From contig CAWGHH010000004.1 of NCBI GenBank assembly GCA_963822405.1, forward strand, positions 70,226-134,225: a DNA stretch of 64,000 nt. Reading direction: 5' to 3'. Below, one piece after another: positions 4,283-58,730 of the stretch. The notes below the pieces were generated by a model. The model had not been told where the DNA came from and ran no database searches. It saw only the letters and a list, made by a program, of their open reading frames with translations. The position numbers and the translations under genes are program-made. Within the stretch, counting starts at the first letter, position 1. Each line of letters begins with the position of its first letter. The DNA is from Candidatus Uhrbacteria bacterium. Lineage in GTDB: Bacteria > Patescibacteriota > Patescibacteriia > UBA9934.

Positions 4283-4379
4283 GGTAAAAGAATATATTCG
4301 TCAAAATTTGAGTCGGACCCTCGGCTGAGCCTACGGGCAAGTTACCTCCTAAAAATTTTACCGAACATATTCTTTTACC
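4283..4379. repeat. Family C long hairpin with conserved loop core (expanded variant)
   Basis: Arms GGTAAAAGAATATATTCG / CGAACATATTCTTTTACC around AAATTTGAGTCGGA…TTACCTCCTAAAAATTT. Confidence 0.7.
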
Positions 4380-4455
4380 TTTGGATAGAGTACACGAGCT
4401 AGAAAAAAAGAGGAACCGCGCCCCAGGCATGCGAGCCCAGGAACGCGGTTTACGG

Positions 4456-5766
4456 CTAGCACTTCAAGCTGAAGCGCTCTTTCCAATACTCGTACAATTC
4501 ACGACGAACTTCCTGGTCCTCCCAATTAACCCCAAAGATTTCTCTATCCCAGTAGTAGTTCACGTGCGTGAGGAGCTGTTCCCCACGCCGAATACCGTGG
4601 TTCAAGTTATCCGTTGCGTACGCCTCGTTAATCCCGTCGCGCAACGTCGTCACCTTCTGTTCGACGAAGGACCGAATGATCCGATCTTCTTCATCGCGCG
4701 AGATTGTACCGATCAGCTTCACGTCCCAATAATCAATGTTTCGGTTAGGTTTCTTACTGGATTCTTCCTCGCTGCGAATGTGCTCAATGGCCAGTGGAGC
4801 CTCACCCCACAGCTTTTCGCACACGTAGGCAAAAAGGCGCAGAGCATCCTCACGTGTCGGAACACGAAGTTCTCCGTGCTCAAGCACTGCCGCCACAACG
4901 TAGAGTCCGCGTCGCGAATCTTTCACCACGGGATAACCGCTCTCAATGCCGATACACTCCCGCTCGTGCTTCATGGCTCGCGAGAACATGCGCTTACGCG
5001 GGTCATCACTCAAAACAAATTGCGTGAACCCGTTGTGTTTGATGATGCGACACGGAAACTCGGACATGACTACCCGTTGGTGACTCTCCGATTTCGCGCG
5101 CAGATCATTTGCCCACCGTTCGGCCTCTGCTTTATCAAATGTGACCCTTGGCTCCTCAATCAACCGACGTTGTTTACTTGAGTTCAGTCGAAACACAGCG
5201 TAGACCGTAGCCGAATCCTCGGCAAACAACCGATTCGCTGCCAAGTTCTCAAGCATAATGACGTCTTTCGAGATCCACCCGTCAGGATCTACAAGTTCGA
5301 GCTGGAACAACTGCGACGCGATGGCGAAGTTCCGTCGAGCCTCAAAAGCCGCCTGACACGCGAGTGTATCCGTACGTTTTTCCATCTTTTGCCAGAGGTA
5401 CATGAGACCAACCGGGTCAAGCTCGTTCGCGCTCGTGTTGTACGTACGCAAGGACAACGCCTTCGGAAAGAAATAATTTCCGATCAGATATTCCAGATAC
5501 AAGTCTGTGAGCTTAATTGCCTCAACAAACATGTCCCAGAATTTCTCAGCTCCAAGCGACGGGAGATCGATCTCGTCATTCGTTCGGTGTGCCCTCTTCC
5601 AGGCGTGATAAAACGCACCCTTTATACCCGCACCTTTCTTCCGTCGTGCCTCGTACAAACGCAAGATCTTATCGAGCAACTCCATTTCTCGGGCGATCGG
5701 TAAGAATTGAAGCACCTCAGCGGGACAAAAAACGCAATCCGTACGCAGAACCATGACAACCCCCAA
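4456..5766 (-). CDS. Hypothetical protein (436 aa), no recognisable family
   Basis: Long clean ORF. Arg/Glu/Trp-rich soluble protein. C-terminal R-x6-H (RRGEQLLTH) is weakly HEPN-like. Confidence 0.6.
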   Translation of the reverse strand: MGVVMVLRTDCVFCPAEVLQFLPIAREMELLDKILRLYEARRKKGAGIKGAFYHAWKRAHRTNDEIDLPSLGAEKFWDMFVEAIKLTDLYLEYLIGNYFFPKALSLRTYNTSANELDPVGLMYLWQKMEKRTDTLACQAAFEARRNFAIASQLFQLELVDPDGWISKDVIMLENLAANRLFAEDSATVYAVFRLNSSKQRRLIEEPRVTFDKAEAERWANDLRAKSESHQRVVMSEFPCRIIKHNGFTQFVLSDDPRKRMFSRAMKHERECIGIESGYPVVKDSRRGLYVVAAVLEHGELRVPTREDALRLFAYVCEKLWGEAPLAIEHIRSEEESSKKPNRNIDYWDVKLIGTISRDEEDRIIRSFVEQKVTTLRDGINEAYATDNLNHGIRRGEQLLTHVNYYWDREIFGVNWEDQEVRRELYEYWKERFSLKC

Positions 5767-5805
5767 GCGTAAAAAGTAAATTTAAGAATAAGACATTGAC
5801 CCTAA

Positions 5806-5838
5806 CAAATAGCAAAAGACGGCGCAAGTGCGCCGCCT
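5806..5838. terminator. Rho-independent terminator downstream of ndk (minus strand)
   Basis: GGCGCAcTTGCGCC hairpin followed on the minus strand by GTCTTTTGCTATTT. Confidence 0.5.
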
Positions 5839-5840
5839 TC

Positions 5841-5890
5841 AACCACCCTGAACCCCCTTTGGTCCCCCTGGGAGGGGGAAGCGAACCAAC
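5841..5890. repeat. Family B C5/G5 hairpin element, intergenic (downstream of ndk)
   Basis: aaccaccctgaaCCCCCtttggtCCCCCtgggaGGGGGaagcgaacc. Confidence 0.75.
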
Positions 5891-5892
5891 CA

Positions 5893-6360
5893 TTAGATGC
5901 CTTCGCCGAAGTGGTAGATGTCGGTCAATTTGTCGTAGGCGAAGACTTCTTCTGGTTTAAAGAAACGATTAATTTCAACGGTAGCTGCTTCAACGGAGTC
6001 AGAAGCGTGAACCATGTTTGATGGGACGTTCATGGAAAGATCAGCACGGATTGTACCTGCATCAGCTACGCGTGGATTTGTAGCACCGACGATTACGCGG
6101 ACTGTTTCAATGACATCCAAGCCCTCAAGCACCATAGCGATCACCGGGGTCTGCATCATGAACTTTAGAAGTGCCGGAAAGAAAGACTTTTCCTTCAAGT
6201 GGCCGTAGTGCTCAGTGAGTGTAGCTTCATCAAGATGAGCCATCTTCATAGCAACAATCTTCAAACCCTTACGCTCAAAGCGACCAATCACTTCACCGGC
6301 CAATTCACGCTGCAATGCATCTGGTTTAATGAGCACTAATGTCTTTTGAACTTCAGCCAT
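5893..6360 (-). CDS. ndk: Nucleoside diphosphate kinase
   Basis: MAEVQKTLVLIKPDALQRELAGEVIGRFERKGLKIVAMK… is typical NDK. Start at ATG 6358-6360. The longer ORF extension overlaps the upstream gene. Confidence 0.9.
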   Translation of the reverse strand: MAEVQKTLVLIKPDALQRELAGEVIGRFERKGLKIVAMKMAHLDEATLTEHYGHLKEKSFFPALLKFMMQTPVIAMVLEGLDVIETVRVIVGATNPRVADAGTIRADLSMNVPSNMVHASDSVEAATVEINRFFKPEEVFAYDKLTDIYHFGEGI

Positions 6361-6409
6361 AAAAAGTTTGTTTAATTTGCGTAGAAGATACGGGAGGCGG
6401 AAACGTTTG

Positions 6410-11150: not shown

Positions 11151-11165
11151 ACGTCCGCCATCCTA

Positions 11166-11519: not shown

Positions 11520-11526
11520 GGGACTA

Positions 11527-11588
11527 CGAATGTCCTCGTTAAAATTTGGAGTCGGATTACCTCCTGGCAAATTTTTCCGAGAACATTC
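11527..11588. repeat. Family C hairpin between the GDH-like gene and the rhodanese gene
   Basis: Arms CGAATGTCCTCG / CGAGAACATTCG around AAATTTgGAGTCGGATTACCTCCTggcAAATTTTT. Confidence 0.65.
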
Positions 11589-11596
11589 TTCGTCCA

Positions 11597-14512: not shown

Positions 14513-14525
14513 CCCAGAAGCGAAC

Positions 14526-14602
14526 GGGTAATGAGACATTATTCCCAAAAATTTGAGTCGGATTACCTCCTAAAAATTTTTAGAAACAATGTCTCATTAC
14601 CC
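14526..14602. repeat. Family C hairpin between convergent rsmB-like gene and 14666 ORF
   Basis: Arms GGGTAATGAGACATT / AATGTCTCATTACCC around AAATTTGAGTCGGATTACCTCCTAAAAATTT. Confidence 0.75.
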
Positions 14603-14665
14603 GAAAAGAAAAACCGTCCAAGCCACGAGGCTCGGACGGTCTGTTGCTGACGATGTACCTTGATG

Positions 14666-30284: not shown

Positions 30285-30307
30285 ACCGTCGCTCAGTTTT
30301 AGAACGC

Positions 30308-43381: not shown

Positions 43382-44062
43382 ATGCCATTTCTGTTAATCG
43401 ACAAGCCCGCCGGAATAACGTCGCATGATGTTGTAGACAAAGTTCGTAAGATAACCGGCGAACGGACTGTTGGTCACGCAGGAACTCTTGACCCTTTCGC
43501 GACAGGCTTATTGATCGTTGGCGTTGGGCGAGACTGCACCAAGCAACTTTCGACATATTTGGGCATGGATAAGGAGTATGAGGCTGAATTCGTGATAGGA
43601 GCGACCACAGAAACATTAGACCCGGAAGGAACGGTCGTCATTTCCCCATCACCGTGGGTCGACGCACGGGTCGACCCCAACGCCGAGATCCGTGACGCAA
43701 TGAAGAAACTCACCGGCGAAATCTCCCAAGTCCCTCCAATGCACTCGGCCATAAAAATAGGGGGACAAAAGATGTATGACCTAGCCAGAAAGGGAGAAAC
43801 GGTGGATATTCCGCCTCGAACACTCACCATTCACTCTTTTGAGTTACTCGACCAGCCAGATTTATCTATTTGGCCAATGGTGCTCAAGGTTAGAATTTCG
43901 TGTTCCTCGGGTACCTATATTAGAGCCTTAGCCCGAGACCTCAGCCAGCTTTTAGGTACAACGGGTTACGTTTCAGCACTTCGACGTACTAAAATCGGGG
44001 AATATTCGGTAACCTCTGCAAAAACCCTTGGCGAGCTGAGCTCTCCCGTGTTACCCTCTTAG
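43382..44062 (+). CDS. truB: tRNA pseudouridine(55) synthase
   Basis: HAGTLDPFATGLL catalytic Asp motif. Family A repeat in-frame (WVDARVDP) at 43655-43680. Confidence 0.9.
   Translation: MPFLLIDKPAGITSHDVVDKVRKITGERTVGHAGTLDPFATGLLIVGVGRDCTKQLSTYLGMDKEYEAEFVIGATTETLDPEGTVVISPSPWVDARVDPNAEIRDAMKKLTGEISQVPPMHSAIKIGGQKMYDLARKGETVDIPPRTLTIHSFELLDQPDLSIWPMVLKVRISCSSGTYIRALARDLSQLLGTTGYVSALRRTKIGEYSVTSAKTLGELSSPVLPS
43655..43680. repeat. Family A element inside truB, in-frame (encodes WVDARVDP)
   Basis: GGGTCGACgcacGGGTCGACCCC. Confidence 0.8.
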
Positions 44063-45978: not shown

Positions 45979-45981
45979 GAA

Positions 45982-46068
45982 GACAAAACAAAAGACCAGT
46001 ATTGCCTCGAAATTTGAGTCGGAGTACCTCCTAAAAATTTCTCGACAACACTGGTCTTTTGTTTTGTC
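45982..46068. repeat. Family C hairpin between convergent HU gene and 46074 ORF
   Basis: 23-bp perfect arms GACAAAACAAAAGACCAGTATTG / CAACACTGGTCTTTTGTTTTGTC around AAATTTGAGTCGGAGTACCTCCTAAAAATTT. Confidence 0.75.
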
Positions 46069-46073
46069 TGACG

Positions 46074-47234
46074 TTAATGCTTCCTGATCCAGAAACTTCT
46101 AGAGAATCGGAACGCAAGTAGGATGATAAGTAGTAAGAAACTTACAAAAGCGGCAAGACCCACAATAACCTTTCCTTGAATTTTTGCGCCTTGAGGAGCG
46201 ACCGGAACAACCTGCGGAGCGATAGGCTTCGCCGCCTCCGGTTGAACAGTTGGTGTTGCAATATGAGGAGACACGACCGGTGTAGATCCTGGGACAGGTT
46301 CGATCGGCAAACTCGGCGGCTTCTGTTCAACCGCTAGTCCACCAAAAATGGCGAACTTTGTTAAGTGACCCACTTGGAACGTCACTTTTGAAGAAGTGAA
46401 CACGGCATCGGGAATAAGTGCCCACTCGCGGTTAGCCTCAACGTAATAATAAACCCCGAGATCTTTAAGGCCTAGAAGATTTTGATCAATCGGCAAAGTA
46501 ATAGTTAGTGGCGGAGAGAATGAATCGACAATATTTCCTGCCGAATCTCGTGCGTAGATATTATAAAATTCACCGTTGATTAACACCTTGTCCGTTGGCA
46601 CTAGTCCTTCCGAACTAGGGGTCAAAGGTTCATGCTCAATAATAATGGTTATTTGGGATCCGGAAGTGTTAGCGGGAATAGTGATGATTACCGGTCCCGC
46701 TGGAGTATCCACAGTTAGCACACCAGCCTGATCAGGCTCCAAAATAAGTGGTTGATCAACAACTTCGACCTGCGCCGGAATACCGATAGTCTGTGCGCCT
46801 AAGACATGACCACCGCCAGGGTTTACCGTCACTCGCCAATCAGTTTGCACGTCACAATAAGTTGGACAACCAAAGTTTATAGTTCCAACCAGCGTGCCCG
46901 TAGCCGTTCCCGTGAATAGCCCGTCGGAATTAATGCTTACTCCGCTGAAATCAATCCAACCAAGCTGCTCGCCCCAAGCAGAACCAGAAAGATTGCCACT
47001 GCCGTCATTCATGACGCCTCCCCTGGCGGGATTAAACTTAATAAAACCCTTGCTCTCAGACCATGCGTAACCACTAAGCGCACTCTCGCCAACAATTACA
47101 TTTTTGAAATTAATGTAGCCGACATTATTGCTCCAAGCGTATTGATGGCTGGTCAGCACCGTGCCTGTCATAGCCAAAACACTCAACGGAGAATATATCC
47201 CCAAGAGTGTAATTATGGCTATTCTTTTCTGCAT
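46074..47234 (-). CDS. Secreted repeat protein with C-terminal TM anchor
   Basis: Signal peptide. Three ~24-aa repeats (YAWSNNVGYINF / YAWSESKGFIKF / SAWGEQLGWIDF). C-terminal TM + RFSRSFWIRKH. Confidence 0.5.
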   Translation of the reverse strand: MQKRIAIITLLGIYSPLSVLAMTGTVLTSHQYAWSNNVGYINFKNVIVGESALSGYAWSESKGFIKFNPARGGVMNDGSGNLSGSAWGEQLGWIDFSGVSINSDGLFTGTATGTLVGTINFGCPTYCDVQTDWRVTVNPGGGHVLGAQTIGIPAQVEVVDQPLILEPDQAGVLTVDTPAGPVIITIPANTSGSQITIIIEHEPLTPSSEGLVPTDKVLINGEFYNIYARDSAGNIVDSFSPPLTITLPIDQNLLGLKDLGVYYYVEANREWALIPDAVFTSSKVTFQVGHLTKFAIFGGLAVEQKPPSLPIEPVPGSTPVVSPHIATPTVQPEAAKPIAPQVVPVAPQGAKIQGKVIVGLAAFVSFLLLIILLAFRFSRSFWIRKH

Positions 47235-47240
47235 ACCAAA

Positions 47241-47933
47241 TTACTTACCGGAAATTATAAGCAGATCAGCATTTGGCTTCACCTCACCGTCTGGCAACTG
47301 AGCCACCACTCCATGAACTAACTGCGCCAGCTGAGTCGCCTCCGTAACGTGCTGACCTGACACATCGATCACCATTGTCTCCGTGTAATTAGTCTTGGCC
47401 GCAGTCTCTACAGAAACAGTTTTCAAATTGCTAAATGATTCTTTTACAGCCTTCTCTACCTCAGCCGACAAACCTGCCGTTGTAGTTCCATTGTAATACG
47501 CCACAGTAAGTTCCGCCGGCGTAGTCTGCGAGGCAGCGGTTTCAGCGCTTACGTTTATTGAAGCAACCTGGATGATTTGGTCAGTCGACGGTCGATACAA
47601 AATCGCTTCTTTGGTATTTACGTAGGCAAAGAGAACATCGCCATTTTCTGCCATCTTAAAAAATGGCTGGTCAGCTAATTTTGTTTTGTCTGAAATAGTG
47701 ACCACTGATGGTTCTTCGTCGGTGGGCAACAAGATATGCTTGCCGAGTGCCGCAATAAGTGCCGCGCTCTGCTTCTGAGCTTCTATATTTGGATTTGCTC
47801 GAAGTGCCGAATATTTCTGATAGAAGTACATTGATCCACCCACACCAAGCACCGCAACAGCCACAAGTAGCCCAAGAAGAACCTGCTTAATATCGAGAGA
47901 ACGAAGTGACTTAACAACATTCGGTTTGATCAT
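47241..47933 (-). CDS. Membrane-anchored protein with LytR_C-like C-terminal domain; paralog of 30308..30814
   Basis: N-terminal TM, shared LPTDE…ILYRPSTDQIIQVASINVS domain, C-terminal VAYYNGTTTAGLSAEVEKAV…TMVIDVSG resembling LytR_C. Confidence 0.55.
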   Translation of the reverse strand: MIKPNVVKSLRSLDIKQVLLGLLVAVAVLGVGGSMYFYQKYSALRANPNIEAQKQSAALIAALGKHILLPTDEEPSVVTISDKTKLADQPFFKMAENGDVLFAYVNTKEAILYRPSTDQIIQVASINVSAETAASQTTPAELTVAYYNGTTTAGLSAEVEKAVKESFSNLKTVSVETAAKTNYTETMVIDVSGQHVTEATQLAQLVHGVVAQLPDGEVKPNADLLIISGK

Positions 47934-47940
47934 AATTAGT

Positions 47941-49545
47941 TTATTGAACTATTGGAGTTTCTACCGGAACGTCAATCGGGACAACAACTGCGTCCATAAC
48001 AGGAGGAACATCAATAACTACCGGTTCCATCACAGGCTCTACTATTGCTTCAGGAATAGGCTCAGCGATAGGCTCGGTAACCGGCTCAATGACAGGCTCG
48101 ACAACTGGCTCTGCGACTGTTTCGGCGACTGGTGCCGGCGACGAATTGTCTACGGGCACAAAACTACTCGACGTGACCACTCCCCCGCTAATAACCTGTT
48201 GCAACTGGTCGCCGTCAACACATATCTCCGTTCCGTCAGTTTTCTTCACACAAAGCTGTTCTGTGTGTACTTTCTTCGTAAAGACTTCATCAAAGTAGCC
48301 ACGAATTGCAGTAACACGAGCAGACACAAAGTCAGTCAAGAACTGTTCGCCACTAGCAATCTTAGACGTGATAATCGAAATCGGATCTCGAGCAATCTCG
48401 GTCTGAATAATAGCCATTAAGCCGTTATCAGTTCCATTGGCTGACACCTCGCCCAAGAGCACGCCTTCCTCACCAAGATCAAGATTTTTTGCAAAGGCCA
48501 TAATCATTCCAACCCCCTCACCTTCATACGATTCCATCGCCTCTCCAATAACAAGACCCGCTCCAATCGATTTTGTCGCAACGCCGGGGGTTGATGAGAG
48601 AGCAAGATAGTCGCCGGCATGAATGCTGCCATTTTCCGTTGTGACTTTTACAGGAACCCGTCCGGATAGCGCAACCGGAACAGCGCCCACTCCCTCTCTA
48701 TTCACTCCCCCAATAAGCGATCCTGGTCTTGTCGAAACAATACCGATAGCATGTTCACCATGAACTCCTGAACTTTTCTTCACGCCAGTTTTCAAAGTAG
48801 AATCTAACGAGACAACATCTCCAGCTTCTAAACCAGAGTCTCTGGTGGTATAAATTTCGGCCAAGTCAGCGCCAGTATCTATAACAATGGCTTCAATGCC
48901 CCAGTTCAAAATATCAGAGTCTCCTCCACCAGATGTCACAGCGGCACATAACGAATAAGGCTGAGCGGATGTGCCCACATCAACTGCGATGCCTGATACG
49001 CGGATGGTTCCTCTGTCATTCACCGCGCTACTTGATGAGGTAATGGTATACGTCACCGTTGCATTCCCAACCGTTGCACCCGTACAATTCGCGGTAGTCT
49101 CAATAACAATTTGTAGCGGCTGGTCAGTACCACTGCCACTGTACACGTCAGCCCAACCTGTAACGTAGACATCCCCGAGCGCAGTTGTTGGTGTCAAAGA
49201 AATGGTTCCGAGAGTGATCTGGGCTCCGCCTGTGGGAATATTCGTCGGTGATTCATTCGTGTCATAAAGTGCCGCATGCTGAAGATCGGAGCCGGCACTC
49301 CTGCAGTTTACCCAAGCGCCGTTTTCATAACAACGGAACTTATTCGTTCCTGTGCTGTAATACATTCCGCCGTTAACCCCAGTTGGATCTGCCGTGCCGT
49401 TATCGAGAACCAACAAATCAGGAGTTGCGGTGCCCGCTATTACCAATTCGAACCATGTCGCTAGCACTCGTTGCTCCCACCGCCAGAAGAATATCACCAG
49501 TACCTGATTGAAGGTTGAGCGAAGTGGCACTGGTGGTGTTGCCAA
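47941..49545 (-). CDS. C-terminal segment of giant surface protein (separated from 49418..55591 by a 1-nt frameshift)
   Basis: The module …IAGTATPDLLVLDNG…KFRCYENGAW continues the repeat pattern of the upstream ORF in another frame. Confidence 0.6.
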   Translation of the reverse strand: MATPPVPLRSTFNQVLVIFFWRWEQRVLATWFELVIAGTATPDLLVLDNGTADPTGVNGGMYYSTGTNKFRCYENGAWVNCRSAGSDLQHAALYDTNESPTNIPTGGAQITLGTISLTPTTALGDVYVTGWADVYSGSGTDQPLQIVIETTANCTGATVGNATVTYTITSSSSAVNDRGTIRVSGIAVDVGTSAQPYSLCAAVTSGGGDSDILNWGIEAIVIDTGADLAEIYTTRDSGLEAGDVVSLDSTLKTGVKKSSGVHGEHAIGIVSTRPGSLIGGVNREGVGAVPVALSGRVPVKVTTENGSIHAGDYLALSSTPGVATKSIGAGLVIGEAMESYEGEGVGMIMAFAKNLDLGEEGVLLGEVSANGTDNGLMAIIQTEIARDPISIITSKIASGEQFLTDFVSARVTAIRGYFDEVFTKKVHTEQLCVKKTDGTEICVDGDQLQQVISGGVVTSSSFVPVDNSSPAPVAETVAEPVVEPVIEPVTEPIAEPIPEAIVEPVMEPVVIDVPPVMDAVVVPIDVPVETPIVQ

Positions 49546-52500
49546 TAGTTATCGTCTTAGCGTTTGCTCCAGTACCAAGATTCACGGCACCGGTTGTGCC
49601 AGAATCAAGCGTCAAGGCTGATGTGGTAGCTGAAGCAATTGAGGTGGCTCCCGTACCGGTCAAAGTTGTTGCTCCAGCCGCAAGAGTAAAACGAGTAGCA
49701 CCACCGGTGATAAGATTCAAAGCATTGGCATCCGTGGTTCCAAGTACTGCCGTTGCAGAGTATGCGTTCCCTCCTTGGATGAAAACCGTTGCGCCCAAGG
49801 TGCTGCTGGTAACGGGCATGGAAACCGTTCGCCAACGTGACGCGCCGGAATCATATTGAAAAGCAACAGTGGTATCTGGTGAGATAGTAAGTCCGCCTCC
49901 GTTTGCAGTAATGATTCTATTCGCAGCAATAGATCCAACATCCTGGTTAGCAAAAATGATACTGGAGGCCGAGGCGTTCATGATGCGCATATAGCGTCCG
50001 TCGGCACCCCCGGCAAAACCAGTGATGGTTGCCGAACCGGCACCGTTGTAGCGGAATAATGAGCCGTTTCCGAGGTCTACATCATTTGTAGTGCCGGTAG
50101 TGATATAGTCGGTTCCCTTTGGCGTGTACCAACCATCTGTAGCGCTAAGTGCGCCGGTCACGGTCAAACCACCATTCATAGTCACCAAACCAGAGCCAAA
50201 AGTAACAGCTCGATTAGTAGTTGTATTTATGCCGAGTATCCCCGCGCCTGTCATGTCCATTACCGTGCTAGCTCCAGCCAAGGTCAAAGCGGTCGAGTTA
50301 AACGTGGTGGCACCGGTACCAGTAGTGAAAGTATTACTACCCGAAACTGAAGCGTTTCCACCCATCACCACACCACCAGAACCGCTATTCAAGTTTAATG
50401 TTGTCGTGCCGGTGGTGTTACCAATAGTAACTATTTTCGAGCTCCCCCCAGTACCAAGGTTTACTGCGCCAGTTGAACCAGAATCAAGCGTCAGAACACC
50501 AGTCGTTCCAGTTGTAATGCCTATGGTCGAGGCCGCTGCTGATGAAAGCGTAAGCGATCCAGTTGACGTTAGTGTTGTCGAGCCTGTACCGGTCAAGGTC
50601 GAAGCAGCCGAGGCCACCTCAAACCGCGTGCTACCACCAGTCATCAAGTCCAACGCATATGCGTCAGTAGTTCCGATCGACAAGGCGGCGCCAATATTGT
50701 TCCCAGCTCCGCAAGCAAAAGAACCGGTCGTCGGACAAGTAGACGTATCAAGCAAAACGTTACCCGTCAGATTAGGGAAGGTCCAAGTCTTAGCGCTACC
50801 AGTTAGATCAGTTGAAGTGAGGGTTCCCGTAAACGAAGCTCCACCGCCAGTAGACGGTGTCAAAGCCAGCTCATCATTAGTAGCCGTACTAGTTTGGAAA
50901 TTTGTAGTTCCGGCAGTTAATGTTACGTTATTTGACCCAGCGTTGATGTTCACCGCAGTGGTTCCAGTTGTGTTACCTATAGTTATCGTCTTCGAGCTCG
51001 CCCCAGTGCCAAGATTGATTGCACCGGTTGACCCAGAGTCAAGCGTCAAAACACCAGTCGTTCCCGCAGTTACGTTTAACGACGTTGCGGATGGACTCGC
51101 AATGTCCCCACCGGTCACAGTTAAGTCCCCGGTTAAGTTTCCATTACCAGAAGTATCAAGTACTAAAGCGTTTGATCCATTCGTTTTCAAGTTCAAGGCG
51201 TAGGCGTCTGTGGTTCCAAAATTAGCGGCGGTCCCAAAGCCATTTCCGCCTTGGATATAGGCAAAGGAAGAAACTGAACCGCTCGATGCTGGCAAAATCA
51301 CTAGACGCCAACGCTGTGCAGTCGAATCGTATTGGAAAGTTGCGGTCACATCCGGATCGATCACTAAGTTTCCTCCAGTAGTAGTAATAATTCGGTTAAC
51401 GTCGGTCGAGCTAACATCTTGATTGCTAAATATCATGCTGGAAGCCGAGGCGTTGGTCAGACGAATCTGTTTTCCGTTAACAGGGTTAGCGATACCGGTA
51501 ATCGTGATCTGCGATGCGCCGGTAAATCTAAACCATGTTCCAGCGCCCAGGTTCAAGTTATTCTGTGTTCCAGTGACCGAGAAATCAGAACCACGAGTAT
51601 TAATCAAAGCTCCTGTATACGTCAGATCTCCATTGATAGTAGCCCCACCCCCAGTAGTAAACAATCCAGTTCCTGTAGAGATTGCTCGATTAGTTACAGT
51701 GTTCAAACTAAGTATTCCCGTGCCGGTCATGTCGATGACCGTGCTATTACCCGCAAATGTAACCGTCGAACCGTTTACCGTCACACTGTCGCCGGTAGCG
51801 TTGCCGAGAGTAGTCAAACCGTTAACTAGTAAATCATTACTAAAAGTTTTGTTCCCGGCCAAGGTCTGGGCGCCAGTTGTCACCAAACCTCGATTCGTTA
51901 CCGATGCATCAGGAATGTTGAACGTATGCGTACCTGATCCTGAAACGATATTAAAGTCAGTACCCGTTGTACCAATAACTAAAGTCTGTGACGCTCCACC
52001 TTCTCCGTTTAAACTAGTCAAACCAGCACCGCCCCCGGTGTCACAATCTTTCCAAGCGACACCTTCATAACATCTAAACTTACTGCTCGCTATATTGTAA
52101 TAGCTTGCTCCAGGCGTGCCGCCTGATGGATCTCCAGAACCACTGACCGCCGATTTTGTGTCGAGCACGAGCAAGTCTGGAGTAGCTGAGCCAGTCGAAC
52201 CAGCACCTATCTGCACATATGCAGTGGTACCCGTTCCCGCCACCTGTAACTTCAAATCCCCCGCGGTAGTTCCCCAGGTTGAGGTCGCACCAGCAGTGAA
52301 TGTCAAAGCATCGGCCGAAGTAAAACTTGACGCAGCTGTTGGTGTCAAAAGAACTGCGCCAGTACCAGTTGCCGTAAAGTTTCCAGAAGTCAGAGTAAGG
52401 GCAAAGTCAGCAGACGAACCAGTCGTAATTCCAGGACCGGCTGTATAGGCACTTTGCAAAGTAGTGGTTCCGCCGGTGGTGTCACAATCCTTCCATCCCC

Positions 52501-55500
52501 CACCTTCGTAACAACGGAACTTACTGCTCGTCGTGTTGTAGTAACTCGCGCCGTTTGTACCTCCAACAGGATCAGCTGAACTATTATTTTTAAGGTCAAG
52601 AACGAACAAATCCGGCGTAGCAGATCCACTACCTACACCGATCTGCACATTGCCGATAGCTCCCGTACCCGCCACCTGTAGCGAAATACCACCAGTTCCT
52701 GACTGCAAATTAAGAGTCGTCGAAGTCGTGGTATTACCAACGGTGACCGTCTTGGCGTTCGCCCCAGTTCCAAGATTTACCGCGCCAGTAGTACCGGAAT
52801 CAAGCGTCAACACGCCAGTAGAGCCAGAAGTCACATTCAAAGCCACGGTCGCGGCCGAAAGCACATCGCCACCGGTAACAGTTAGATCACCCGTTAAATT
52901 GGCGTTGCCGGAGGTATCAAGGGATAGGGCCGTTACATTGTTAGTAATCAAATTAAGTGGGTAACCATCAGTTGTGCCAACATTAAGCGCGGTATTGAAG
53001 CTATTTCCACCCGCCACAATTGCCACCGCCTCGACCGGTAAGGCGGTAACGCGCCAACGCAATGATCCTGAATCATATTGAAGACTGATAGACCCATTAG
53101 TGCCAATCGTTGCACTCTCCCCGTTCGCGGTAGCAATTCTATTTGCCGCCAATGACCCAGAATCCTGATTTGTAAGAACTATATTTGAAGATGAAACATT
53201 GGTGATTCGAATTTGTCTACCATCTGTTCCACCAGCAATACCCGTAACCGTTGCTGGGGCGCCGCCAGTAAAACGGAATAACATTCCAGAGCCAAAGTTT
53301 ACGTTGTTCTGAGTACCGGTAGACGAATAGTCAGTGCCCTTTGGCGTAATGAAATTACCGATGACTGAAAAGGCACCGGAACCAGAACTAAATGAGTTTC
53401 CATCCGTAAATGTTACGTTACCATCAATATTTATGCCTCCGGAACCAGCGTCAAGGTGAAGAGCGGTAGCACCCACGTTATTACCAATAGTAATTATTTT
53501 GGCGTTTGCTCCTGTTCCCAAATTAACGTCACCAGTAGTTCCAGAATCAAGGGTCAATACACCGGTCGTCCCTGTCTTCAAATTCATCGCCGTGACCGCT
53601 GGTGTTGAAATATCCCCGCCAGTGACCGTTAAATCTCCAGTTAAGTTACCGTTACCTGAAGTATCCAGTGTAAGTGCGTTTACTCCCCCAGTCTGCAAAT
53701 TCAGCCCATAAAAATCATCCGAGCCAAGAACTTCAGTAGCCCCGAAAGAATTTCCGCCCTGAATAAAACCAGTGGTCAAAATGTTTGCCACGTTAGATGG
53801 TGGCGACAAAACGTGCCAGTGTCCATAACCATTATAAATCTCGTATTGCAACATGACGGTTGTGTCTTCTGGAAGCACCAAGTCGCCCAACGTACCGGTG
53901 ATAATTCGATTATCAGTACTGGATCCCGCGTCTTCGTTCTTCAAAGTAATGGTGTTGGCACCCGCCGCGTTCATAAGCGTAAGTAGCTGACCGTCCGTGC
54001 CCGCCAAAATTCCAGTGAACGCCACTGGAGATGCTCCCGTATATCGAATCAATGCTCCGATACCAAAATTTGCATTATTCACGGTTCCAGTTGTCGTAAA
54101 ATCAACTCCATGGGGAGTGATTAAATTACCAGCAATCGTCAGACTGCCGTCTACATTATTATCTCCACCAACAGTGAATAGACCGGTACCAGTGGTGATC
54201 GCCCTATTTGTTGTTGTGTTTAGGCTGAGCGTACCCGTTCCGGTCATGTTTATCACCGTACTATTCCCCGCAAGTGTGATTCCCGTCGAGTTAATAGTGG
54301 TGATGCCTGTGCCGGTAGTGAAAGCGTTACTGCCAGTAATTGTTGTATTGCCACCAAGCGAGATGCCACTTGAGCCACTATTCAAGTTAAGTGCCGTCGT
54401 ACCTGACGTATTACCAATTGTGATTATTTTCGAGTTAGCCCCGTTACCAAAGTTAATCGCTCCGGTGGTGCCGGTATCGATCGTCAAAGTTCCCGTAGTG
54501 CCGGTAGTAATGCCTATAGTCGAGGCCGCCGCAGATGAAAGAGCAAGCGCACCAGTTGACGTGAGAGTTGTCGAGCCCGTACCAGTCAAGGTCGAGGCAC
54601 CCGCAGCTAGAGCAAACCTAGTCGCTCCGCCCGTGATAAGGTCTAGAGCGTAAGCGTCTGTTGTACCAATGGTTGCTATAGCTCCGAAAGAGTTACCGCC
54701 CTGCGCAAAATCGAGACTAGCGGTTGTAGGTAAAACAGCAACCCGCCAGCGAGACGCACCTGAGTCATACTGCATGTCAAACGTTGAGTTTGGCGGAATG
54801 ACTGCATCCAAACCAGTCTCTATGATAATTCTGTTGGCCGCCACCGAACTGGTATTTTGATGTCTAATGGTCAAATTAGATGAAGAAGCGTTTGTGATTC
54901 GGACCATCTGGCCGTCAACCCCGCCTGCAAAACCAGTAATCGTCGCCTCGCTCACGCCGGTATATCTAAAGAAAGAGCCAGTGCCAAGATCAACGTCATT
55001 CTGTACACCGGTCGTTGCGAAGTCGGTTCCCATTGGTCTCGCATAATCTCCAATGATGGTCAGTCCATCACCAAATGTCTTTGCGCCGGCAAATAACTGT
55101 GTTCCTGTCGTCACTAGTCCTCTATTTAAGGCCGAGGCATCAGGAATATTGAGTGTGTGAACGTTAGCCGCCGAAGCAAAACTAACATCCGTTCCAGATG
55201 TTCCGATGGCGAACGTTTGAGTGGTTCCAGTTTGGCCGTTCAAGCTGGTCAAACCAGCACCACCACTAACCGTCACCCACGCAGATCCATCATAGGCAAA
55301 GAAAGTCCCCCCAACTGTATCAAGATACAAGGCTCCCGTATCCGGGCTGACGAGTGCAGGCGCACCAGCACCAGTATTTGCGTCACCAATCGGCAACACG
55401 CCACAGTTGCTAGCGCCAGGTGCGCAATCTGGTTCTAGTGTTTCACCTGGTAAGTACACGGAAGCTTGGGCAAAAGGAGCCAAAACCAATGAAAATACAC

Positions 55501-55591
55501 AAAATAAAACAGATACACTAAATTTAGTAAATGTACTATGTACAAAATTCTGTCTATGGATGTCCATAGCGCACGTTAGGTTGACCAACAC
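49418..55591 (-). CDS. Giant Thr/Gly-rich secreted surface protein (2057 aa segment) with ~250-aa tandem modules
   Basis: Signal peptide. Repeated modules containing ATPDL(F/L)VLD…KFRCYEG(G/V)WKDCDT and long TGT-rich beta stretches. Confidence 0.7.
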   Translation of the reverse strand: MLVNLTCAMDIHRQNFVHSTFTKFSVSVLFCVFSLVLAPFAQASVYLPGETLEPDCAPGASNCGVLPIGDANTGAGAPALVSPDTGALYLDTVGGTFFAYDGSAWVTVSGGAGLTSLNGQTGTTQTFAIGTSGTDVSFASAANVHTLNIPDASALNRGLVTTGTQLFAGAKTFGDGLTIIGDYARPMGTDFATTGVQNDVDLGTGSFFRYTGVSEATITGFAGGVDGQMVRITNASSSNLTIRHQNTSSVAANRIIIETGLDAVIPPNSTFDMQYDSGASRWRVAVLPTTASLDFAQGGNSFGAIATIGTTDAYALDLITGGATRFALAAGASTLTGTGSTTLTSTGALALSSAAASTIGITTGTTGTLTIDTGTTGAINFGNGANSKIITIGNTSGTTALNLNSGSSGISLGGNTTITGSNAFTTGTGITTINSTGITLAGNSTVINMTGTGTLSLNTTTNRAITTGTGLFTVGGDNNVDGSLTIAGNLITPHGVDFTTTGTVNNANFGIGALIRYTGASPVAFTGILAGTDGQLLTLMNAAGANTITLKNEDAGSSTDNRIITGTLGDLVLPEDTTVMLQYEIYNGYGHWHVLSPPSNVANILTTGFIQGGNSFGATEVLGSDDFYGLNLQTGGVNALTLDTSGNGNLTGDLTVTGGDISTPAVTAMNLKTGTTGVLTLDSGTTGDVNLGTGANAKIITIGNNVGATALHLDAGSGGINIDGNVTFTDGNSFSSGSGAFSVIGNFITPKGTDYSSTGTQNNVNFGSGMLFRFTGGAPATVTGIAGGTDGRQIRITNVSSSNIVLTNQDSGSLAANRIATANGESATIGTNGSISLQYDSGSLRWRVTALPVEAVAIVAGGNSFNTALNVGTTDGYPLNLITNNVTALSLDTSGNANLTGDLTVTGGDVLSAATVALNVTSGSTGVLTLDSGTTGAVNLGTGANAKTVTVGNTTTSTTLNLQSGTGGISLQVAGTGAIGNVQIGVGSGSATPDLFVLDLKNNSSADPVGGTNGASYYNTTSSKFRCYEGGGWKDCDTTGGTTTLQSAYTAGPGITTGSSADFALTLTSGNFTATGTGAVLLTPTAASSFTSADALTFTAGATSTWGTTAGDLKLQVAGTGTTAYVQIGAGSTGSATPDLLVLDTKSAVSGSGDPSGGTPGASYYNIASSKFRCYEGVAWKDCDTGGGAGLTSLNGEGGASQTLVIGTTGTDFNIVSGSGTHTFNIPDASVTNRGLVTTGAQTLAGNKTFSNDLLVNGLTTLGNATGDSVTVNGSTVTFAGNSTVIDMTGTGILSLNTVTNRAISTGTGLFTTGGGATINGDLTYTGALINTRGSDFSVTGTQNNLNLGAGTWFRFTGASQITITGIANPVNGKQIRLTNASASSMIFSNQDVSSTDVNRIITTTGGNLVIDPDVTATFQYDSTAQRWRLVILPASSGSVSSFAYIQGGNGFGTAANFGTTDAYALNLKTNGSNALVLDTSGNGNLTGDLTVTGGDIASPSATSLNVTAGTTGVLTLDSGSTGAINLGTGASSKTITIGNTTGTTAVNINAGSNNVTLTAGTTNFQTSTATNDELALTPSTGGGASFTGTLTSTDLTGSAKTWTFPNLTGNVLLDTSTCPTTGSFACGAGNNIGAALSIGTTDAYALDLMTGGSTRFEVASAASTLTGTGSTTLTSTGSLTLSSAAASTIGITTGTTGVLTLDSGSTGAVNLGTGGSSKIVTIGNTTGTTTLNLNSGSGGVVMGGNASVSGSNTFTTGTGATTFNSTALTLAGASTVMDMTGAGILGINTTTNRAVTFGSGLVTMNGGLTVTGALSATDGWYTPKGTDYITTGTTNDVDLGNGSLFRYNGAGSATITGFAGGADGRYMRIMNASASSIIFANQDVGSIAANRIITANGGGLTISPDTTVAFQYDSGASRWRTVSMPVTSSTLGATVFIQGGNAYSATAVLGTTDANALNLITGGATRFTLAAGATTLTGTGATSIASATTSALTLDSGTTGAVNLGTGANAKTITIGNTTSATSLNLQSGTGDILLAVGATSASDMVRIGNSGHRNS

Positions 55592-55712
55592 CCCAATTCA
55601 ACTTTTCTCTAGCCACAGCATACCATGCACAACTATTACTGAGCATATCGGTGCATAACTTAAATCCCGCACCTCTTGGGGCGCGGGACGTTCGTATTCG
55701 GCCGTGGCCGAA

Positions 55713-56000
55713 TTACGAAGACGGACTGTTCGTCAGCACTTGGGTGCCGATTTTTCGGACGTTGTTCCAGGCGTGACGTATTCTCACTTCCGGTAGACTG
55801 TGGTCAATCGTGGCGTCAGCCGCATCGTACGGCGGCATGCGATCAACCTGTGTAGGGTCCATGTTTGCCCCCATCACGCGGTACGTAAGCACGTGAACCG
55901 CAACCATGAAGTCGCGCGAGGCAAACAGCTGGGGCGGCGGTTTCTGTGCCCCAATCCCAAACTGTAGCGTATCCACAGCAGTGAAATTATACTCGCCCAT
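55713..56000 (-). CDS. Hypothetical protein (95 aa), GC-rich
   Basis: ORF with elevated GC. Palindrome ATTCGGCCgtGGCCGAAT immediately downstream of its stop. Confidence 0.4.
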   Translation of the reverse strand: MGEYNFTAVDTLQFGIGAQKPPPQLFASRDFMVAVHVLTYRVMGANMDPTQVDRMPPYDAADATIDHSLPEVRIRHAWNNVRKIGTQVLTNSPSS

Positions 56001-56037
56001 CTTCCCTCCAAACGTTCAAACCTCCTACAGTTTACAC

Positions 56038-56122
56038 CAAAAAAACAAAAACCAGCGTTGTCGAGAAAATGTTAGGAGGTACTCCGACTCAAATTTCGAG
56101 ACAATACTGGTCTTTTGTTTTT
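56038..56122. repeat. Family C hairpin (inverted orientation) downstream of proS
   Basis: Near-identical arms to the 45982 copy, around AAATTTGAGTCGGAGTACCTCCTAACATTTT on the minus strand. Confidence 0.7.
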
Positions 56123-56126
56123 TGGT

Positions 56127-57383
56127 TTACACGAGTACGTTCATCACTTCATTGACCGCAACAATCTTCGCCTCGCCTCCGGCACGCTCTTTCCATTCTA
56201 CTCCCCCAGCAGCCAGAGATTTTTCGGAAACAACTAGTCGAACTGGAATTCCAATTAGATCAGCGTCGGCAAACTTAGCGCCAGGACCGATTCCTTCTCG
56301 ATCGTCCCATAACACCTCAACACCCTTTGCCAAAAGCTCTGAATACAATTTGTGTCCAGCCTCGTCGATCGTAATCTGAACCTCTGGGCTTTTCGCGTTT
56401 AGAGAGATGAGATGAACCGCAAATGGCGCTACAGCCTTTGGCCAAATGATACCGTTATCATCATGGGATGCCTCAACGATTGCGCCAACTAATCGAGAAA
56501 CGCCGATTCCGTAACAACCCATGAGAATAGGTGCTCGCGTACTATCCTCAAGTTGAACACTAAAATCAAAATCTTTAGAAAATCTATCGGCTAGGTCAAA
56601 GATATTCCCAACCTCTACGCCCTTTGTTGCCACTAGCGTTCCTTTGCAGTTTGGACAAGCATCCCCCTCTTTAACCGTGGCAATCTCAGTATTCTGCGCA
56701 AAGCTACAAGCTCGACAAAGAATAAGATTATCCTCACCGGCCGGAGTTTCAACTTGGAACTCGTGCGAGGCCTTTTTGGAAAATGAACCGCCAGACGACT
56801 CAGTCACCTTCGCGTCTAAGCCCATTCGGGTATACGCTTTTAAGTACGCTTGCTTGGCTTTTTCGTAGAATGCTTCAAAGTCCTCAGCTGTCGTATGGAA
56901 CGAATACATGTCCTTCATTAAGAATTCACGACCTCTAAGTACGCCACTCTTAGCGCGTAACTCGTCACGGAATTTTGTTTGGATCTGGTAAACGGCGAGC
57001 GGAAGGTCTCGATAGCTCTTAACGAATTCCTGAACAAGAGGCGTAACTATCTCTTCGGCAGTTGGTCCAAGACCGTACTCTTTTCCTGTTTGGCTTGGGA
57101 CTTTAAAAAGTACGTCAACGGAATCCCAACGGTTAGTTTTCATCCAGTTCTCCTTTGGCTGTAACGCTGTCATCAAAATTTCCTGTGCACCAAGGGCATT
57201 CATCTCCTCGCGAACAATCTTTTCGATATTACGAAGAACTCGCAATCCAAGTGGTAACCAAGAATAAACACCAGCCATTTCCTGGTGAACAAATCCGCCC
57301 TGGACTAAATATCGAGCATTGACGCTATCTGCATCAGCCGGACGATTCTTGGAAGATTTCGAAAAAAGTTGGGAGTACTTCAT
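56127..57383 (-). CDS. proS: Prolyl-tRNA synthetase, short form lacking insertion/editing domain
   Basis: Class II aaRS motifs with ProRS-like sequence (…FRDELRAKSGVLRGREFLMKDMYSFH…). 418 aa. Confidence 0.8.
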   Translation of the reverse strand: MKYSQLFSKSSKNRPADADSVNARYLVQGGFVHQEMAGVYSWLPLGLRVLRNIEKIVREEMNALGAQEILMTALQPKENWMKTNRWDSVDVLFKVPSQTGKEYGLGPTAEEIVTPLVQEFVKSYRDLPLAVYQIQTKFRDELRAKSGVLRGREFLMKDMYSFHTTAEDFEAFYEKAKQAYLKAYTRMGLDAKVTESSGGSFSKKASHEFQVETPAGEDNLILCRACSFAQNTEIATVKEGDACPNCKGTLVATKGVEVGNIFDLADRFSKDFDFSVQLEDSTRAPILMGCYGIGVSRLVGAIVEASHDDNGIIWPKAVAPFAVHLISLNAKSPEVQITIDEAGHKLYSELLAKGVEVLWDDREGIGPGAKFADADLIGIPVRLVVSEKSLAAGGVEWKERAGGEAKIVAVNEVMNVLV

Positions 57384-57409
57384 AGTGAAAGGATGGTAGC
57401 ACCCCTTCC

Positions 57410-57712
57410 CTACGGTGTCACCTGGATCATGGATCCAGCAAAATGCGCAATAATCAAAACAATTCCAATTCCCATAATAATGAGGGCGAGCTGGAAAATG
57501 GCCTTCGCGTCCTTATCGTCAGACACGAAACCGACGAATATATATGAGGCAAAACCCAGAATTAACATTGCTGGCACACCAGCCAAGACGATTCCAACCA
57601 GTAATAATGGTGACATATATGTGGTAGGGGTCGACCCATGCGTCGACCCATTTATATACATTATAACAGAAAAAATAATGGAGGGCGCATGAGCCCTCCG
57701 AACGACGGTCAC
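57410..57712 (-). CDS. Small hydrophobic membrane protein (start uncertain)
   Basis: Two predicted TM helices. A family A repeat lies within or just upstream of the N-terminus and encodes GSTHGSTPTT. Confidence 0.35.
   Translation of the reverse strand: MTVVRRAHAPSIIFSVIMYINGSTHGSTPTTYMSPLLLVGIVLAGVPAMLILGFASYIFVGFVSDDKDAKAIFQLALIIMGIGIVLIIAHFAGSMIQVTP
57627..57649. repeat. Family A element (GGGGTCGACCCatgcGTCGACCC) in small membrane ORF region
   Basis: Encodes GSTHGSTP in the 57410..57712 frame. A degenerate half-copy lies at 58055-58075. Confidence 0.7.
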
Positions 57713-57723
57713 TCAAACCGATT

Positions 57724-58008
57724 CTATTTCCCCTTTCGAGTCTTTTTGTACTTCTTGAGGATGTCACGGTACCGTCGCGGCATGGGACGACACGGAATAC
57801 CAGCTCGCTTGGCATTCTTTCGGACTATCTTGTCAATCCTCCACAGATCTTCAGCGGTGATTCGAATCTCACCTGGGTCATACGTCCTCACATCAGAATG
57901 CATCCTTGGACGAGTAGCGATTCGAGCAATCCTTCGTACCTCATCCAAAAACTCCTGACTTCCGCACAAATGAGTCACGACGACACACCGCACATCACTC
58001 GCCATCAC
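57724..58008 (-). CDS. Hypothetical basic protein (94 aa)
   Basis: ORF overlapping the upstream ORF by 4 nt. Lys/Arg-rich C-terminus. Confidence 0.4.
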   Translation of the reverse strand: MMASDVRCVVVTHLCGSQEFLDEVRRIARIATRPRMHSDVRTYDPGEIRITAEDLWRIDKIVRKNAKRAGIPCRPMPRRYRDILKKYKKTRKGK

Positions 58009-58310
58009 ACACCTCCCATTTGTCGTGACGCAGGTCCGTCGAAAACCGTGAACGAGTCGACCCCCACATACGAGCGGGAGACGATTTTTTCGTCGGACGG
58101 AACGTCGGGCACGTCGACATAAATCACACGTCCTTCAGTTTCCTTACACCCCCCACCACCGCGCGGAGGCCTTAATTCACCATGACGACCATGGAAGAGC
58201 CAGTACAAAAACCTCGGCACAAGGAGCGAGACCGCAACGCCCATCACCATCGCGGCAAACATTGAACTTGCGATTTGTTCGATGATAAACGACCAATCAA
58301 ATGCCCGCAT
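58005..58310 (-). CDS. Hypothetical small membrane protein (101 aa)
   Basis: N-terminal TM helix. Adjacent to the tRNA-Lys 3-prime end. Confidence 0.4.
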   Translation of the reverse strand: MRAFDWSFIIEQIASSMFAAMVMGVAVSLLVPRFLYWLFHGRHGELRPPRGGGGCKETEGRVIYVDVPDVPSDEKIVSRSYVGVDSFTVFDGPASRQMGGV

Positions 58311-58391
58311 GGAAACCTCCCAAAAGGGACAGTATGCAAAAACGGATGATTCGTCAAAACAAAACGACCCTTCTTTCGAAGGATCGGCTTG

Positions 58392-58467
58392 TGGTGCACC
58401 GGGCGGGACTCGAACCCGCGACCAAGAGATTAAGAGTCTCCTGCTCTACCAACTGAGCTACCGATGC
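58392..58467 (-). tRNA. tRNA-Lys (anticodon CTT)
   Basis: Cloverleaf folded by hand: acceptor GCATCGG/CCGGTGC, D-arm GCTC-AGTTGGTA-GAGC, anticodon loop CTCTTAA, T-arm GCGGG-TTCGAGT-CCCGC, encoded CCA. Confidence 0.85.
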
Positions 58468-58529
58468 GCATAAAGTCCATTTTATCCCCTTTTCAGGGAT
58501 AGATGACGGACGTCAGTATGCCAAATGCT

Positions 58530-58558
58530 TTGACTGTGGTCAAGATTTTTGCTAGTAT
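58530..58558 (+). promoter_or_regulatory. Promoter for tRNA-Arg: TTGACT-N17-TAGTAT
   Basis: Near-consensus -35/-10 with 17-nt spacer, ending 11 nt before the tRNA 5-prime end. Confidence 0.55.
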
Positions 58559-58569
58559 TCTAGCGTTCT

Positions 58570-58646
58570 GTGGTGTTAGCTCAGCTGGATAGAGCATCTG
58601 CCTTCGAAGCAGAGGGTCGGGGGTTCAAATCCCTCACACCACACCA
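58570..58646 (+). tRNA. tRNA-Arg (anticodon TCG)
   Basis: Acceptor GTGGTGT/ACACCAC, D-arm GCTC-AGCTGGATA-GAGC, anticodon loop CTTCGAA, 5-nt variable loop, T-arm GGGGG-TTCAAAT-CCCTC, encoded CCA. Confidence 0.85.
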
Positions 58647-58730
58647 GAAACAAAAGAGAGATATCTTGGTAAAATTTTTAGGAGGTAATCCGACTCAAAT
58701 TTTAACGAGATATCTCTCTTTTGTTTCTGG
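58644..58730. repeat. Family C hairpin between convergent tRNA-Arg and rnc
   Basis: 23-bp perfect arms CCAGAAACAAAAGAGAGATATCT / AGATATCTCTCTTTTGTTTCTGG around the conserved core (minus-strand orientation). Overlaps the tRNA CCA end. Confidence 0.75.

Follow-up and report, generated by a model that had tools for sequence, protein, structure and literature searches.

Palindromic hairpins with a conserved tip as a probable duplicating repeat family in a small clade of Patescibacteria

What kind of element is a long hairpin that recurs, with a conserved tip, between the genes of a bacterial genome? The question is raised by a 64,000-nucleotide stretch of a Candidatus Uhrbacteria bacterium (GenBank assembly GCA_963822405.1, contig CAWGHH010000004.1, positions 70,226 to 134,225; hereafter, the window), in which an earlier note, made from the sequence alone, had pointed out six hairpins and read them as plausible bidirectional intrinsic terminators. 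Homologs of ProRS and LeuRS assign the window to Patescibacteria, near Uhrbacteria; genomes of this group, also called the Candidate Phyla Radiation (CPR), are tiny and densely packed, and they are usually regarded as containing few repeats and little mobile DNA. We consider that the hairpins, named family C, are probably clade-restricted palindromic repeats of 75–100 nt that duplicate and are still spreading, similar to miniature inverted-repeat transposable elements (MITEs), Rickettsia palindromic elements (RPEs) and repetitive extragenic palindromes (REPs), and partly co-opted at gene ends; namely, the family is selfish or co-opted hairpin DNA and not simply a set of terminators.

All six loci were found where the earlier note had placed them. 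Indeed, when the window was searched for inverted repeats without bias, the six longest were exactly these hairpins, with arms of 28–39 nt and a complementarity of 77–94%. Also, AAATTTGAGTCGGA with up to two mismatches has six matches in the window (0.6 expected) and TACCTCCTAAAAATTT with up to three mismatches again six (0.5 expected), the latter being five of the six hairpins plus a second match within copy 6, with copy 2 unmatched. We call the window copies w1–w6 (copies 1–6) and the loci of relatives L001, L002 and so on, and all copies are oriented on the strand reading AGGAGG. On the minus strand, w1 (4281..4381) comes after the upstream gene's canonical terminator, 16 nt before the start codon of FMN reductase; w2 (11521..11595) lies between the stop codon of glutamate dehydrogenase (GDH; 11597-11599) and the start codon of a rhodanese gene, w3 (14525..14603) between the stop codon of an RsmB-like gene and the convergent gene's canonical terminator, and w4 (45981..46069) between the stop codons of HU and of a 386-aa gene. 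On the plus strand, w5 (56030..56132) is located just 3′ of the ProRS stop codon and antisense to both flanking genes, and w6 (58642..58732) begins inside the 3′ end of tRNA-Arg and reaches to within 1 nt of the rnc stop codon. The placement "at gene 3-prime ends" thus stands only in part, because w1 and w2 each immediately precede a start codon, with the genes on either side running in the same direction.

The "31-nt loop" that had been described at the center of the hairpins does not hold; it is mostly paired, i.e., a further helix. From base to tip, the hairpin is composed of a basal stem whose sequence varies, a 2x2 internal loop rich in purines (GA/GA or GA/AA), a 6–8-bp A/U-rich stem, a UU/C internal loop and an apical mini-helix, AGGAGG/CCGACU, with the pairs A-U, G-C, G.A and A.G in tandem, G-C and G-C, which is closed by a tetraloop with its middle two bases variable (UAAU, UACU, UCAU or UAAA). 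Four copies had been said to have unrelated arms, but similarity rather falls off the farther one goes from the apex, and the arms are of two types: the T-type reading AAAACAAAAGA... (copies 4, 5, and 6) and the M-type reading GGGAC-GNA-GAATGTTCTCGG (copy 2, to which copy 1 is related). The near-identity of the arms at 45982 and 56038 was borne out, the two copies being oppositely oriented; w4 is a paralog of w5 and the ortholog of L002 12196-12262.

Selection on secondary structure, as proposed earlier, is supported by strong covariation and by compensatory double changes between orthologous copies of different genomes. In the hairpin predicted by RNAalifold from an anchored alignment of 17 sequences, 21 of the 25 pairs have double compensatory changes, and when 20 copies from four related genomes were aligned, 94.2% of the cells were paired, compared with 66% in shuffles and 35–49% with slid partners. 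The inner stem AAATTT/AAATTT in this 20-copy alignment is replaced by GAACTG/CAGTTC or GGCTG/CAGCC in other copies, and the A-U pair of the apex by G-C in two. Compensated pair differences were furthermore noticed between the orthologs w6/L001a/L002a, w4/L002hp2 and L012/L026. No Rfam family reached its gathering score for the hairpins (only tRNAs did so), and the matches below that score were merely generic long hairpins (miRNA precursors).

Two details of w1 are noted here. A 24-nt insertion (CCCTCGGCTGAGCCTACGGGCAAG on the plus strand, 4318-4341) sits exactly in the apical tetraloop and can form a small stem-loop; it is missing from the ortholog, L018 15645-15711. Also, some 20 nt between w1 and its canonical terminator (CTCGTGTACTCTATYCAA; window 4382-4402, L018 15620-15644) are better conserved than the hairpin arms and may be a promoter making the hairpin the 5′ end of the FMN-reductase mRNA.

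Comparison with relatives, for which protein identities give the tree ((window, L002), (L001, L003, L022)), reveals presence/absence polymorphism of the hairpin at orthologous sites: between EPSP synthase (EPSPS) and peptidase M50, between GDH and rhodanese, at the 3′ ends of RsmB and HU, between tRNA-Arg and rnc, just downstream of ProRS, and at ribE. At the EPSPS|M50 site, the genomes of L001 and L003 have the hairpin plus about 30 extra nt, and the outgroup L019 and the window are empty; in the window (2396..2404, minus strand), stop and start are 3 nt apart, CAT aaa TTA (TAA ttt ATG in gene sense). The GDH|rhodanese site is filled in the window only, and L018 reads TAA t ATG there. A second, inverted copy on the HU side is found in the window and L002 only, and w3 is missing at the orthologous RsmB end in L018 and L020. 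In three comparisons of filled with empty sites, the whole hairpin together with its arms was gained in a stop/start spacer of 1–3 nt. Identical whole hairpins occur, furthermore, at non-orthologous sites, and copies gained independently in different sublineages have near-identical arms (GGGAC-GNA-GAATGTTCTCGG...), so that the copied unit is the whole hairpin, derived from a conserved source.

These gains also bear on the proposal that the conserved core is mobile and inserts into the loops of terminators, which gets no support from the appearance of whole hairpins at new sites; no arms-only empty site was found. Such a core mini-element in pre-existing terminator loops was rejected, given that the window has no long palindromes besides the six hairpins and that unfilled sites have either no spacer or an unrelated GC-rich terminator.

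Other sites are ancestral. Site S2, downstream of ProRS (w5), is filled in four genomes with orthologs in L001, L002 and L003; site S1, between tRNA-Arg and rnc (w6), is filled in three, and its orthologs in L001 and L002 have compensatory changes. The site upstream of FMN reductase is filled in two sublineages. At the ancestral sites, the arms are heavily diverged yet paired and the apex is unchanged; in w5 and its orthologs, for example, the apex is identical and the arms are diverged by about 50%. We also noticed that Logan short-read contigs of the same organism (L025 9150-9196; L021) stop inside w6, so that the repeat breaks short-read assemblies.

One copy is located inside a gene. In the L003 genome, a 66-nt hairpin (L012 3556-3622) lies in frame and sense within the open reading frame (ORF) of riboflavin synthase, where it adds DQNVHENLLGGNPTPNFQEHSG between the conserved LTVIE and RRFTFSVSLIPETL; the insertion point is in a surface loop, and the ORF is intact with both Lum_binding domains kept. 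The same insertion is present in a second genome (L026) with compensated arms and an intact apex, and the ortholog in the L001 genome is without it. A possible 7-nt repeat, TCGAAGA, overlaps the arms in L012 but is not in frame with clean excision. A role as terminator is incompatible with this copy. As a separate observation, two proteins, P0249 (the riboflavin synthase of the window's own contig, encoded outside the window) and P0247, have an extra LPGGLGGR at the exact insertion site, which may be the deleted remnant of a hairpin copy (LGG = UUAGGAGGU).

The same in-frame copy speaks against an explanation in which the hairpins are purely cis-acting RNA of the host, i.e., immobile bidirectional intrinsic terminators or 3′-end processing signals with an apex read by RNase III, a Nus factor or an exonuclease blocker. 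Much at the gene ends would suit this explanation. Copies are enriched at convergent junctions: in the window, they occupy three of about 4–5 convergent junctions compared with three of about 45 co-directional and no divergent ones. T-type copies (w4, w5, w6, L001a/b, L002a/hp1/hp2, L003b, L004, and L006) have A-rich 5′ and U-rich 3′ basal arms, with 7–10 U within the basal 12 nt. Moreover, L003 has an ordinary GC-rich canonical terminator in place of the hairpin at site S1, and L022, which is nested next to L001, has canonical terminators and no hairpin after both ProRS and HU. In view of these canonical terminators at orthologous slots, some copies are plausibly bidirectional terminators, and the apex kept at orthologous sites would also suit a host function.

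The M-type copies (w2, L008, L011, L018a/b, and L012), however, have no U tract, and w2, L008/L018b and L011 are inside operons in stop/start spacers of 1–14 nt, right before essential genes, one of them directly upstream of map (methionine aminopeptidase). Four further copies (w1, w3, L005, and L002hp2) adjoin a separate canonical terminator, which for w1 is located at 4403..4447 (minus strand; GC-rich stem and U tract, conserved in L018 and L020) and for w3 at 14611..14642 (minus strand). Together with the identical whole hairpins at non-orthologous sites and the lack of the family in close outgroups, these copies make an exclusively host-serving RNA rather unlikely, and the earlier proposal of bidirectional terminators is plausible for some copies at gene ends but, given those that are operon-internal, within an ORF or adjoining a terminator, does not account for the family as a whole. 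A consensus terminator scan called no whole hairpin a terminator, its sole overlap being the 5-pair apex stem in w2; the counts of the consensus promoter/terminator scan were no higher than in shuffled sequence. At L006 230-460, as an aside, two convergent ORFs (an AAA-ATPase gene and a 44-aa ORF) both end inside the hairpin arms, where the palindromic GTAAAAGGAAATAA gives a TAA stop on each strand.

Another property of the hairpins is their polarity. On the AGGAGG strand, G.U wobbles outnumber A.C by 21:4 over the modelled pairs and by 32:3 over the whole arms, the fold is the more stable one in 18 of the 20 copies, and a covariance model scores 59–85 bits compared with 18–32 bits on the reverse strand. 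The three results together indicate that a single strand of fixed polarity folds. This strand is sense at four co-directional sites (w1/L018a, w2, L008/L018b, and the riboflavin-synthase ORF) and antisense at two (w5 with its orthologs, and L011), the remaining sites being convergent; in w3 and L002hp2, furthermore, it is 3′ of a strong canonical terminator. Since the polarity does not track the direction of neighboring genes, and since w3 and L002hp2 are beyond a terminator, we read it as a property of the element that comes from its mode of copying and not as one of each host transcript.

Such a polarity would also be expected if the AGGAGG-strand hairpin were a single-stranded DNA element of the REP or IS200/IS605 kind, moved by a single-copy HUH (Y1) transposase encoded elsewhere with seamless excision and insertion and no target duplication; this is in effect a sub-model of the duplicating repeat with DNA as the intermediate. 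Consistent with it are the strand asymmetry independent of local transcription direction, the lack of target-site duplications at apparently seamless filled/empty junctions, the lineage-specific, vertically inherited and slowly proliferating character of the family, and a C-to-G change next to the apex that is the same in all three copies of the L002 genome and suggests either co-evolution with a trans-acting factor or gene conversion. Nonetheless, no Y1/HUH gene was found in the ~300 kb surveyed, REPs conserve their stem and a 5′ GTAG where family C conserves the apex instead, and the orientation in the window, with four copies on one strand and two on the other, does not follow the GC skew, which is uniform. 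A DNA intermediate of this kind is hence a minor possibility, to which we would give some but not much weight.

The apex itself deserves consideration, and that it might be a binding site, as the earlier note suggested of the loop, is an attractive possibility. Its likeness to the 3′ tail of 16S rRNA, also suggested there, is real: of the 14 nt of the E. coli tail, GGAUCACCUCCUUA, 12 can pair with the apex UUAGGAGGUAAUCC. If the tail in this clade were ...GGAUUACCUCCUAA, the apex would be its perfect 14-nt complement, the canonical tail leaving 12 of 14; no rRNA gene was detected by the Rfam search in any clade locus examined. Full GGAGG Shine-Dalgarno (SD) sites are rare, about 22 in 300 kb of clade DNA, which places the hairpin apices among the strongest SD-like sites of the clade. 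A ribosome-docking hairpin might thus be imagined, with UUAGGAGGUAAUCC as an extended SD sequence that pairs with the whole single-stranded 3′ tail and either holds the 30S subunit on transcripts (for stabilization, standby or re-initiation between cistrons) or titrates it. The complementarity, the scarcity of other GGAGG sites and two independent insertions between translationally coupled genes, both sense, would favor this idea. The SD bases are, however, locked in the conserved mini-helix, which is itself backed by the compensatory change from A-U to G-C, no start codon is present at SD distance, and at roughly a third of the sites it is the opposite strand that would be in the mRNA; ribosome docking as the function of the family is therefore improbable. 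We regard as equally improbable a broader version, in which an anti-16S-tail apex on about 80 hairpins per genome docks or titrates 30S, or in which the 3′ end of rRNA serves as a primer or handle for copying. If it were true, the family would be a self-propagating hairpin whose sole sequence requirement is a ribosome-complementary tip. The conservation of the apex at old sites and the C-to-G change shared within L002 suggest, in any case, that the apex has a trans-acting partner or that the copies undergo gene conversion with one another. Sites of restriction type, TCCGAC and GAGTC, were also noticed in the core.

The family is restricted to a narrow range of hosts. Among 185,579 species-representative genomes, the exact 18-base core with a hairpin was found in one, the same genome as locus L003; other matches to the 18-base pattern in those genomes were chance matches without hairpins, and the exact 20-base pattern had none. 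Exact-core scans gave only chance matches in the metagenome collection and no matches in the viral collection, blastn gave none in the phage and plasmid collections, and the outgroups L019 and L020, with LeuRS identities of 77–83%, have no copies. Within the clade, copies occur about once every 10 kb and make up roughly 1% of the genome (6 in the 64-kb window; 4 in 43.5 kb and 3 in 21 kb of relatives). A search of the literature on CPR palindromic repeats or on anti-SD sequences of Patescibacteria returned nothing relevant. The genome carrying L003, GCA_964348985.1 (CAYGEQ01; L003-L006, L008, L011, and L012), is a metagenome-assembled genome with the title "uncultured Gammaproteobacteria bacterium", yet it shares synteny with the patescibacterial window and its proteins are 85–92% identical; it looks mislabelled.

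Several observations weigh against a duplicating repeat and should be set beside those above. None of the three filled/empty comparisons shows a target-site duplication, and the window genes and the precomputed Pfam tables of the relatives revealed no transposase, reverse transcriptase or HUH gene in the vicinity of a copy. Selection is not the only source of compensatory changes in a DNA palindrome, since template-switch correction of quasipalindromes can produce them as well. For an apex so strictly conserved in copies that are old and immobile, a host function or gene conversion is a better fit than plain selfish DNA, and the mixture of orientations with respect to the flanking genes speaks against a simple strand-specific function in mRNA. 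Also, the clade DNA surveyed amounted to only ~300 kb.

A duplicating palindromic repeat nonetheless appears to us the most satisfactory account, and it can be described as follows. The copied unit is the whole hairpin including its arms, and the copying probably involves a single-stranded intermediate, RNA or DNA, whose polarity is fixed as that of the AGGAGG strand. Copies survive only where they are harmless: namely, directly 3′ of stop codons where genes converge, in the gap that separates a stop codon from a canonical terminator, in the 1–3-nt spacer of coupled cistrons and, once, in frame in the surface loop of riboflavin synthase. After insertion, the arms drift yet stay paired, and the apical module remains near-invariant with a variable tetraloop. 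The apex is probably what a trans-acting factor recognizes, either an enzyme of copying or maintenance or an RNA-binding partner of the host such as 30S. Each transcribed copy would fold into an RNA hairpin of 30–45 bp. Judging from the equivalence of slots, w4, w5, w6 and their relatives may have been co-opted as bidirectional terminators or 3′-end protectors that are swappable with ordinary terminators; the M-type copies inside operons and the ORF would be tolerated passengers.

While family C has been likened here to RPEs, REPs and MITEs, it lacks the defining features of each. RPEs are also dispersed palindromes of about 100 nt in one lineage of reduced-genome bacteria, with intergenic copies and in-frame genic copies that add a short peptide to a tolerated loop, as seen here in riboflavin synthase; they are, however, conserved over their whole length, whereas in family C conservation is limited to the apex and variation in the arms is compensated. 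Within ORFs, furthermore, family C is known from a single site so far, and the likeness is one in kind, with no sequence homology to be expected in a host of an unrelated phylum. REPs and REPINs, with their REP-associated tyrosine transposase (RAYT), are extragenic hairpins found mostly after genes or between convergent genes; they share with family C the single-strand polarity and the lineage-specific, vertical inheritance with slow duplication, and some of them are stabilizers of RNA 3′ ends or terminators. REPs are nonetheless only 20–40 nt long with a conserved stem sequence and a 5′ GTAG, while it is the apex that is conserved and the stems that vary here, and REPINs combine a variable loop with conserved arms, contrary to family C. 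No RAYT (Y1/HUH) gene was found among the scanned window genes or in the precomputed Pfam tables of relatives, which cover <10% of a genome. The MITEs known as Correia/NEMIS in Neisseria and ERIC in enterobacteria are, like family C, non-autonomous elements of about 100 nt that form long RNA hairpins and vary in presence and absence; they are co-transcribed with neighboring genes, and such RNA hairpins are processed by RNase III or RNase E. MITEs have conserved terminal inverted repeats and target-site duplications, e.g., TA, and neither was seen across family C: its ends differ between subfamilies, GGGAC...GTCCC being shared by the M-type only. No insertion sequence was found in the DNA examined.

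Three further systems can be compared. Bidirectional intrinsic terminators share with T-type copies the arrangement of an A-rich 5′ arm, a stem and a U-rich 3′ arm, the convergent sites and the alternation within a slot, but their stems are of 5–14 bp in contrast to 30–45 bp in family C, which in addition has a conserved 19-nt apex module and M-type copies without U tracts inside operons or an ORF. The attC sites of integrons, located at the 3′ ends of genes, are also imperfect palindromes that vary in both sequence and length and of which one strand folds and functions; attC conserves its outer core sites (R''/R', GTTRRRY) and varies in the center, however, whereas the center is conserved here, and cassette arrays lie beside an integrase, whereas family C is dispersed with no integrase seen in the DNA examined. 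TIGR-Tas arrays occur in Patescibacteria and phages and likewise combine conserved short motifs with variable, partly palindromic segments (PMC12045711). Their units are tandem arrays of 8–12-nt repeats with spacers of ~9 nt, or stem-loop arrays, by a Nop-domain gene (PMC12045711), and identity with TIGR-Tas was rejected, as the copies of family C are single and dispersed, form no arrays and have the wrong unit size.

Several neighboring features are recorded here. The inverted paralogs w4 and w5 enclose a variable gene block (46074..56000, minus strand) of ~10 kb that is absent or much shorter in relatives. We considered whether the two copies are the ends of a cassette or transposon and rejected it: the enclosed genes are surface-protein-like without a transposase, and a small conserved gene ties the block to the ancestral arrangement. 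Within 46074-55591, the block encodes large proteins without a Pfam match (386, 230, 534, and 2057 aa), and a PolC-sized ORF in the window has no Pfam match, either. The block has paralogous segments in 24516-30814, the region of 1922-aa and 168-aa proteins, where the 230-aa gene resembles 30458-30697 and the 534-aa gene 28851-29246; this similarity suggests that the block proteins and that region may belong to one surface-protein gene family. A second repeat family, GGGTCGACGC(A/T)(T/C)GGGTCGACCCC(A)ACG with two GGGTCGAC units, has five copies in the window compared with none expected (3712-3735, 29997-30020, 30725-30748 and 43659-43682 on the plus strand; 57623-57646 on the minus strand), and several of them read VDAWVDPN in frame within apparent ORFs, including a TruB-like gene. 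In the closest relative, L002 18325-19714 is a diversity-generating retroelement (a bAvd-like gene and an RVT_1 reverse transcriptase) next to IF2, which is missing at the syntenic place in the window, and at L003 13636-13723 ARAGORN predicts a tRNA-like gene of 88 nt with an undetermined 2-base anticodon ("ct").

In conclusion, family C takes the place of ordinary terminators, separates genes that are translationally coupled and extends an enzyme by a peptide, and such repeats can readily be misread as terminators or as genes for non-coding RNA. An invariant purine-rich tip on arms that are free in sequence but paired, with wobbles on one strand, is the inverse of the REP/REPIN and MITE designs, and this architecture points to a recognition mechanism that reads the apex of the hairpin. 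The gain and loss of these hairpins within one small clade, furthermore, indicate that selfish or co-opted palindromes shape even minimal genomes.

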